Below are positions 3,979-4,000 of a DNA stretch of 21,799 nt, piece by piece. The notes beneath the pieces are model-generated. The model saw nothing but the letters and a program-made list of their open reading frames with translations. It did no database searches and was not told the origin of the DNA. Source of the stretch: a virus. Position numbers and translations under genes: made by a program. Numbering within the stretch: the stretch's first letter is position 1; each line of letters starts with the position of its first letter. The stretch is from the UHGV virus genome UHGV-1662791. One strand, given 5' to 3'.

Positions 3979-4000
3979 CTTGTCCAACGTGTTGGACAAG
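3979..4000. repeat. 22-bp palindrome CTTGTCCAACGTGTTGGACAAG (10-bp perfect arms, 2-bp centre)
   Basis: Read directly from the sequence; about 120 bp upstream of the HNH gene start. Geometry suits a dimeric DNA-binding protein site better than an RNA hairpin (loop too short). Confidence 0.4.

Follow-up and report, generated by a model that had tools for sequence, protein, structure and literature searches.

What is the inverted repeat at positions 3979-4000 of the viral genome UHGV-1662791, and would it act as duplex DNA or as folded RNA? The stretch analyzed here, referred to as the window, comprises 21,799 nucleotides, and the repeat (CTTGTCCAACGTGTTGGACAAG) consists of two arms of 10 nt each (3979-3988 and 3991-4000) that are 100% complementary and 2 nt apart. 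A preliminary description had introduced it as a perfect 22-bp palindrome in the bor-HNH intergenic region. The location is borne out, the repeat lying between the bor/iss gene on the minus strand and the HNH gene on the plus strand (Table 1), and the arms pair throughout, but the GT at the centre is not self-complementary and "perfect" is therefore a slight overstatement. Taken alone, the repeat is weak evidence and is not beyond chance. In first-order Markov simulations, scored for perfect inverted repeats (arms ≥10 nt, spacer ≤8 nt), 0.2 such repeats occurred per 21.8-kb window and 17% of the simulated windows had one or more; the window itself carries a second perfect inverted repeat at 8554-8577, within a coding region. 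We nevertheless judge the repeat at 3979-4000 to be real, because its pairing is kept in homologues and because it belongs to a hairpin family that is repeated in podophage genomes.

Table 1. Features around the inverted repeat, with positions in the window
Feature	Position	Strand	Sequence or remark
bor/iss lipoprotein gene	3302-3595	-	annotated in homologous loci; downstream of the phage-type promoter, same strand
o-spanin (Rz1) 3' remnant, SfIV-type overlapped	3700-3828	+	left edge of the SfIV-shared module
Orphan 40-codon ORF (ORF40)	3776-3898	-	MFHSTNHQAVIM...; C-terminal half antisense to the o-spanin remnant
Ribosome-binding site and start codon	3896-3911	-	AAGGAGG-TTCAAC-ATG, read from sequence
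Leader stem-loop	3933-3950	-	+1 to +18, GAAGG-ACAGAATG-CCTTC; in RNA fold
Putative K1-5/SP6-type single-subunit phage RNA polymerase promoter	3947-3967	-	ATTTACTGGACACTATAGAAG, -17 to +4, predicted +1 = G3950
Extended stem-loop	3975-4004	-	13 pairs including G·U, 4-nt loop, then UUUCCUGUUUGAUUU; terminator-like scan
Palindrome core	3979-4000	-	CTTGTCCAAC / GTTGGACAAG, 10-bp arms, 2-nt centre; includes podophage motif GTCCAAC-NN-GTTGGAC
Second hairpin	4013-4033	+	GAGTTGT-ATTGATC-ACAACTC; variants fit plus-strand RNA pairing
HNH endonuclease gene, P27/HK97-type packaging module	4121-4471	+	phrog_144, E = 1.8e-45

The usual candidates for a conserved element at such a site gave no match. Across the whole window no Rfam family passed its gathering threshold, and the matches in 3550-4250 at E <= 10 were of chance level only. 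The known prophage sRNAs AgvB, AsxR and Pas are located elsewhere, near Q and the lysis genes, and have no Rfam match here. An sRNA ending at the hairpin was also considered and rejected, as the pattern scan revealed no sigma-70-like promoter on either strand and inspection of 4004-4120 by eye revealed none. A by-eye comparison with the consensus sites of IHF, CRP, FNR and LexA gave no convincing match at the palindrome.

The repeat belongs to a defined module. Upstream lie lambda-type S, R and Rz genes and downstream the genes for a P27-family small terminase and the large terminase, and the region is 100% identical to the chromosome of E. coli strain 14EC001. Positions ~3710-4120 form one module with about 85% identity to Shigella phage SfIV, where it is located right after the lysis cassette. 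The translation of the SfIV o-spanin ends in ...SLDLNVSLLSALGQCNLDKAGIRRIEASRSGRSESGSK, which is matched by the window ORF 3688-3828, and the strong conservation at 3700-3828 is explained by this o-spanin remnant. The module was found in 632 of 5426 complete E. coli genomes (about 11-12%), including O157:H7 strains and EC958, with nothing annotated inside it. HNH homologues at 40 loci in other genera do not share the upstream region, and several have a plus-strand terminator instead; a 95%-identical HNH homologue in a S. flexneri chromosome is likewise without the module. The palindrome is therefore part of the 3710-4120 module and not of the HNH gene. It is present in every homologous region examined.

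The closest neighbour of the palindrome is a putative promoter for a single-subunit phage RNA polymerase, the -17 position of which follows on the minus strand after 11 U-rich nucleotides. The pattern ATTTAGGTGACACTATAGAAG, the SP6 promoter consensus, has its sole match in the window at this site, with 0.00 expected by chance. The type could be assigned from promoter sets compiled for three complete genomes (SP6, K1-5 and KpnP_VR702). The window promoter is identical at 21/21 positions to the commonest K1-5 form, several K1-5 promoters sharing ATTTACTGGACACTATAGAAG, and at 25/25 nt to K1-5 12578-12602, whereas it differs from the SP6 consensus at three positions, all at -12 to -10. By its sequence it is thus an exact consensus promoter of K1-5 (a Vectrevirus, infecting E. 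coli) and not a degenerate SP6 promoter. SfIV has at the same place ATTTAGGTGACACTtTAGAAG, which departs from the SP6 consensus at a single position. The triplet at -12 to -10 is CTG (K1-5 type) in the E. coli prophages and GGT (SP6 type) in SfIV, so that the two prophage forms differ in this triplet exactly as K1-5 and SP6 promoters do. The conservation of the promoter is not above that of its flanks (diversity 0.091 vs. about 0.11), and some variants carry changes absent from the natural promoters examined, e.g. -2C, and -3T of SfIV.

The direction of this promoter is away from the packaging genes and antisense to the late operon of the prophage. None of the 54 annotated genes of the complete SfIV genome encodes an RNA polymerase and none was seen among the window ORFs. 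Given its absence from SfIV's annotated genes, the prophage cannot use the promoter itself. Other chromosomal and prophage contexts for K1-5- or SP6-type promoters were searched for, and only this cassette turned up: matches of K1-5 type in E. coli chromosomes come from 594 genomes, have an identical alignment extent and lie in this cassette only, and promoters of SP6 type in IMG/VR lie only in contigs resembling SP6-like phages and in SfIV-type prophages.

The origin of the hairpin is indicated by the same phages. The first lead was a 53-nt match (E = 4e-6), obtained in a sensitive search of phage genomes, to KpnP_VR702, a virulent SP6-like Klebsiella podophage of the Molineuxvirinae. This match spans the hairpin together with ATTTAGGGGACACTATAGAAG, an SP6-type phage RNA polymerase promoter, one of the 10 promoters of this type in KpnP_VR702, which all lie on the coding strand. 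Read on the minus strand the window repeat is GTCCAAC AC GTTGGAC, and GTCCAAC-NN-GTTGGAC occurs in nine copies each in SP6 and KpnP_VR702, with about 0.15 expected; the window core is identical to the KpnP_VR702 copies at 14418, 19578 and 31781. In K1-5 the sequence GTCTCAC-NN-GTGAGAC occurs six times and GTCCAACGTGTTGGAC once. The former is the alternative form in O157-type prophage copies, so both podophage forms are present among the prophage variants. Each podophage genome has largely one core sequence among its copies, which suggests recognition by a sequence-specific factor, either RNA- or DNA-binding.

Within the podophage genomes the copies are mostly intergenic, straight after stop codons, with some inside coding sequence. 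At three syntenic sites the hairpin lies ~5-16 nt upstream of a phage promoter. Two of these are just past the RNA polymerase gene (SP6 6093 and 6264; K1-5 6002 and 6183) and one is between SP6 gp19 and gp20 (SP6 14255, K1-5 14559, KpnP_VR702 14418); the SP6 gp19/gp20 region is the best match to the window unit. A hairpin followed by a promoter is a standard unit of intergenic control in the virulent SP6-like podophages (Molineuxvirinae). The window hairpin has the family core GTC-Y-M-A-C NN G-T-K-R-GAC, a stem lengthened to 10-13 pairs by its flanks, sense-strand G·U pairs and, shortly downstream on the same strand, a phage-type promoter. It lacks the many copies characteristic of a Molineuxvirinae genome, the podophage-type palindrome being present once in the window and twice in tandem-duplicated variants. 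These few copies, together with the SfIV-like temperate host, make it a displaced member of the family, outside a podophage genome. The flanks of the cassette were also searched for similarity to podophage gp19/gp20-type proteins, and none was found.

The stem is maintained in spite of sequence change. Among the 14 distinct versions of the region found in IMG/VR prophages and in E. coli genomes, the palindrome arms are among the more variable segments (mean diversity 0.167), yet their complementarity is kept. The window type CTTGTCCAAC/GTTGGACAAG and the O157 type CTTGTCTCAC/GTGAGACAAG are two fully compensated pairs apart, the arms changing from CCAA/TTGG to CTCA/TGAG. A further stem pair, read on the minus strand, passes from U-A through U·G (variant L015) to C-G (L187 and L046), and the outer stem is GAGG/UUUC in the window with G-C pairs in other variants. 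The minus-strand hairpin and the leader hairpin both appear in the RNA minimum-free-energy fold. For a covariation test, 9 prophage and 26 podophage copies were aligned and compared with the 13-pair stem. A pair was formed in 84% of the cells, as against 75% in shuffles and at most 39% in slid registers, and the covariation score was 0.312 compared to 0.164 in shuffles, a value reached by 0 of 500 shuffles.

The G·U pairs indicate the strand. With the promoter strand taken as sense, they number 18 sense vs. 6 antisense in the prophages and 32 vs. 12 in the podophages; the prophage variants are related sequences, and the counts are not independent events. Across the prophage variants the outer pairs are formed in 87% of cells on the minus strand vs. 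61% on the plus strand. In SP6, six of the nine copies read GTCTAAC/GTTGGAC, which pairs in sense RNA only. In the 7-bp core of the prophage variants, however, the asymmetry is absent or slightly reversed (1 sense vs. 3 antisense), core pairing being 95% in the sense of the promoter strand and 98% in the opposite sense. Single transitions in the palindrome occur in both directions, and those in the S87, L027 and L100 types give G·U on the plus strand only. On balance, the compensatory pairing and the excess of G·U on the promoter strand favour a stem-loop in sense transcripts over a repressor operator.

Taken together, we consider it likely that the palindrome is the core of a minus-strand RNA stem-loop within a podophage-derived unit of hairpin and promoter that was captured by a temperate phage. 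On the minus strand the unit runs from the stem-loop (4004 to 3975) through the promoter (3967 to 3947) and the leader hairpin to AAGGAGG-N6-ATG and ORF40. An ancestor of SfV/SfIV-like temperate phages would have acquired it between the lysis cassette and the HNH-terminase genes. In the podophages the hairpin would, by analogy, act in the transcript, as a processing or 3'-end-stabilizing hairpin or as a weak terminator, and it may be recognized by a phage-specific factor. In a lysogen the cassette would be silent, the cognate polymerase not being encoded. Upon infection by an SP6/K1-5-like phage, the polymerase of the invader would start at G3950 and transcribe leftwards through ORF40 and bor/iss, antisense to the lysis genes; the presence of a Vectrevirus or SP6-like polymerase should suffice to activate a promoter that is perfect by consensus. 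Since the hairpin lies upstream of +1, it would be transcribed only in the two-unit tandem variants or by read-through. The hairpin may thus lack a function in the single-copy prophage, and the default assumption for the cassette is that of a passenger relic.

It is possible, although doubtful, that the cassette is instead adaptive, serving the prophage as a sensor of, or a decoy for, superinfecting podophages of the SP6/K1-5 type. The outcome of such sensing could be expression of ORF40 and bor/iss, a long antisense RNA over the prophage lysis genes, or transcription-primed replication of the kind that occurs at the primary origin of T7. In favour of this view, the hairpin core alternates at four positions between exactly the two types that occur naturally in podophages. 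Together with the exact switch of the promoter triplet, this would point either to selection for a match with particular invaders or to infecting podophages as repeated donors in gene conversion, as drift at about 15% divergence would rarely give such exact switches. Against a benefit to the prophage stand the conservation of the promoter, no better than that of its flanks, and the substitutions in variants that are unlike the natural promoters examined.

A different function was envisaged in the preliminary description, namely an operator for a dimeric DNA-binding protein, which might control the packaging genes or a moron promoter. In this reading the palindrome would be a site in duplex DNA for a regulator of prophage, host or podophage origin, acting on a nearby promoter or on the HNH/packaging genes. 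The dyad symmetry and the presence of a promoter 11 nt away are consistent with such a site. So is the occurrence of one core per podophage (GTCTCAC in K1-5; GTCCAAC or GTCTAAC in SP6 and KpnP_VR702), as expected for sites that co-evolve with a trans-acting factor, and the core sequence is conserved beyond the needs of a plain hairpin. Nevertheless, we regard an operator as unlikely. The half-site TTGTCCAAC shows no surplus in the window (6 matches with at most one mismatch vs. 5.6 expected), the ORFs between bor and the terminase genes include no regulator-like gene, and the pattern scan of 3200-4700 found no sigma-70-like promoter to repress. The arms vary in prophage homologues while their complementarity is kept, and the U·G asymmetry relative to the direction of transcription (as in the six SP6 copies) and the G·U-rich outer stem are unexpected for a symmetric DNA site. 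Some podophage copies, moreover, lie inside coding sequence or right after stop codons and not at promoters. If a sequence-specific binding protein exists, it is more likely to be podophage-encoded than prophage-encoded. Control of the packaging genes is contradicted by the adjacent K1-5/SP6-type promoter, which points away from them. The suggestion of a moron promoter holds in part, as the palindrome does adjoin the promoter of a moron-like insert, but that promoter is not of the sigma-70 type.

Returning to the RNA stem-loop, it could also be read as an intrinsic terminator of the host type on the minus strand, which would stop antisense or read-through transcription from the packaging side before ORF40 and bor/iss. 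The pattern scan does call it as such, with 13 pairs, a 4-nt loop and a U-rich tail; the hairpin is stable, and the asymmetry of A-rich and T-rich sides suits the minus strand only. Such calls are unspecific, however, the scan having found 4 sites against an expectation of 1.8. G-C pairs account for just 5 of the 13, the run of U is broken (UUUCCUGUUU), there is neither a gene nor a predicted promoter upstream on the minus strand, and the identity with the podophage repeats and the adjacent phage promoter would be left unexplained. We therefore consider a host-type terminator decidedly unlikely. It is very unlikely that the palindrome is a plus-strand RNA element of the prophage late transcript, e.g. 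a processing or stability hairpin between the lysis and HNH/terminase genes: the lambdoid late transcript (from the Q-antiterminated pR') is the one RNA expected across the region and would cross it in the plus sense, the 10-bp core pairs as well on one strand as on the other, and the single transitions of the S87, L027 and L100 types and the plus-strand G·U path of the 4013-4033 hairpin would agree with it, but the outer stem pairs better on the minus strand, the compensatory series passes through U·G on that strand, the homologous podophage hairpins are in the sense of the adjacent promoter (minus here), and the HNH genes of related phages in other genera are without the region.

The remaining elements of the cassette resemble the start of a podophage transcription unit. 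The leader stem-loop is invariant in alignment A1, although partly by construction, a 15-mer from it having served as the retrieval anchor; stem-loops close to the 5' end likewise follow several podophage promoters, e.g. in KpnP_VR702. The AAGGAGG-N6-ATG element is nearly invariant (mean diversity 0.014 among 49 variants). ORF40 is open in all variants, and its N-terminal half has mostly non-synonymous substitutions. It was assigned to no PHROG family and has no homologues outside this locus. The possibility that it is a toxin or another real gene was considered and set aside on account of its orphan status, the C-terminal half being antisense to the o-spanin and the N-terminal half evolving non-synonymously; it is probably not a real gene. 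Two further observations concern the surroundings of the hairpin. Across the window, S87 and SfIV in alignment A1, the second hairpin passes from T-A through T·G to C-G. Where the prophage carries a single copy, no known transcription covers the minus strand upstream of the palindrome hairpin.

To our knowledge, a promoter for a single-subunit phage RNA polymerase is as a rule confined to the virulent phages in which that polymerase is encoded. In this case a promoter perfect by consensus and a signature podophage hairpin are located in a prophage carried by roughly 1/9 of the sequenced E. coli strains, and the cassette appears to be direct evidence of genetic exchange between a virulent podophage and a temperate phage. 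It also predicts a cross-talk, in that infection by K1-5/K1E/SP6-like phages, which are used in phage therapy of K1 strains, would elicit minus-strand transcription from one defined base of a prophage. If this has a fitness effect, a resident element would sense the invader through the invader's own polymerase; if it has none, the cassette would still be a natural marker of past recombination between podophages and prophages. The hairpin family itself, conserved and genome-specific in SP6-like phages, appears to be uncharacterized in function: no function of the palindrome in these phages was found in the accessible literature, which did not extend to the primary SP6 and K1-5 genome papers. 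The palindrome goes unmentioned in other genome papers on SP6-like phages, as does an SP6-type promoter in the genome paper on SfIV.

The closest known relatives of the window hairpin are those of the SP6-like podophages, with which it shares the core, the extension by CTT/AAG flanks, the promoter strand and the spacing of about 11-16 nt upstream of the promoter, and, in the case of KpnP_VR702, 53 nt of continuous similarity. In contrast to these, it resides in a temperate, myovirus-tailed lambdoid prophage, it occurs in one copy (two in duplicated variants) compared to 8-9 per podophage genome, and no gene ends just upstream of it. The window promoter likewise resembles those of SP6 and K1-5 in that a 5' stem-loop and a strong Shine-Dalgarno sequence lie downstream of it, an arrangement also found in podophage late genes, but it is without a cognate polymerase gene, is antisense to the late operon and faces ORF40 and bor/iss.

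A functional parallel to the podophage hairpins may be seen in the RNase III sites of T7 (R1.1 etc.), which are intergenic hairpins in polycistronic transcripts of the phage polymerase, some of them interleaved with promoters after the RNA polymerase gene. The placement is comparable, above all for the copies at SP6 6093/6264 and K1-5 6002/6183, and the 13-bp stem and its placement would be compatible with an RNase III site; the hairpin has no Rfam match. The T7 sites are longer, with internal loops and no shared core sequence, whereas the hairpins of SP6-like phages have 10-13 bp and a conserved, genome-specific core. As an insertion, finally, the cassette resembles a lambdoid moron such as bor, being a small foreign insert between late modules, on the opposite strand, independent of the late operon and beside bor/iss. 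It differs from a moron in its non-sigma-70 promoter, in an orphan ORF that is probably non-coding, and in a hairpin that stands before the promoter and not after the gene.

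The very high conservation at window positions 3700-3828 is due to a 3' remnant of the overlapped o-spanin (Rz1) gene of the type found in the Shigella temperate phage SfIV, and this remnant is what was left when the ancestral lysis cassette was replaced by a lambda-type S-R-Rz/Rz1-bor block. Some 60 nt past the stop codon of the bor/iss lipoprotein gene, within Rz on the opposite strand, there is a terminator-like hairpin that is probably the bor terminator.

Features of the window accompanying the palindrome
Feature	Position	Strand	Remark
Terminator-like hairpin, CTGGGTTCCTTCCAG then TTGTTTTTGC	3229-3243	-	
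3' remnant of SfIV-type overlapped o-spanin (Rz1) gene	3700-3828	+	
Second hairpin, GAGTTGT-ATTGATC-ACAACTC	4013-4033		12 nt from palindrome
Second perfect 10-bp inverted repeat, AAGGCCGGTT-N4-AACCGGCCTT	8554-8577		within head-gene coding region

The second hairpin runs through a T-A, T·G, C-G series on the plus strand among its variants, and this series suggests that the late (plus-sense) transcript is structured ahead of the HNH endonuclease gene. The Citrobacter, Acerihabitans, Erwinia and Pantoea prophages (L134, L139, L142 and L147) lack the cassette (hairpin, phage promoter, leader and orphan ORF) ahead of HNH and have a canonical intrinsic terminator on the plus strand in its place; this terminator lies 15-140 nt upstream of HNH, and a T run follows its stem, which is AACCGCC/GGCGGTT or AAACCTCC/GGAGGTTT.

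Upstream of HNH, six loci (L040, L046, L053, L056, L098 and L207) have about 287 bp duplicated in tandem in the region that corresponds to window 3896-4180, which yields two serial hairpin-plus-promoter units and a truncated HNH N-terminus of 22 codons. The promoter variant of the HNH-proximal unit is ATTTACTGGACAGTATAGGGG (ATTTACTGGACAGTATAGGAC in L207), and in most of the six both the Shine-Dalgarno sequence and the start codon are missing from this unit. In an IMG/VR prophage (L012, 5981-6162; equivalent to window ~3989) the palindrome loop is interrupted precisely by an IS1203/IS629 element, with the junction ...CTTGTCCAACG|TGAACCGCCCC... Over 119 nt, the end of this IS shows 100% identity with the annotated IS1203 of O157:H7 strain TX 376-2, where IS1203 lies about 60 nt away and the IS is no longer adjoined by the cassette or the HNH gene.

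The podophages SP6, K1-5 and KpnP_VR702 each hold one palindrome copy in the primase/helicase gene (at 7071, 6983 and 7231, respectively). This copy includes an in-frame ATG (ATGTCTAACGTGTTGGACAAG), which, by analogy with T7 gene 4B, may be an internal start. Other podophage copies adjoin the two promoters directly after the RNA polymerase gene, which is where the primary replication origin lies in T7.
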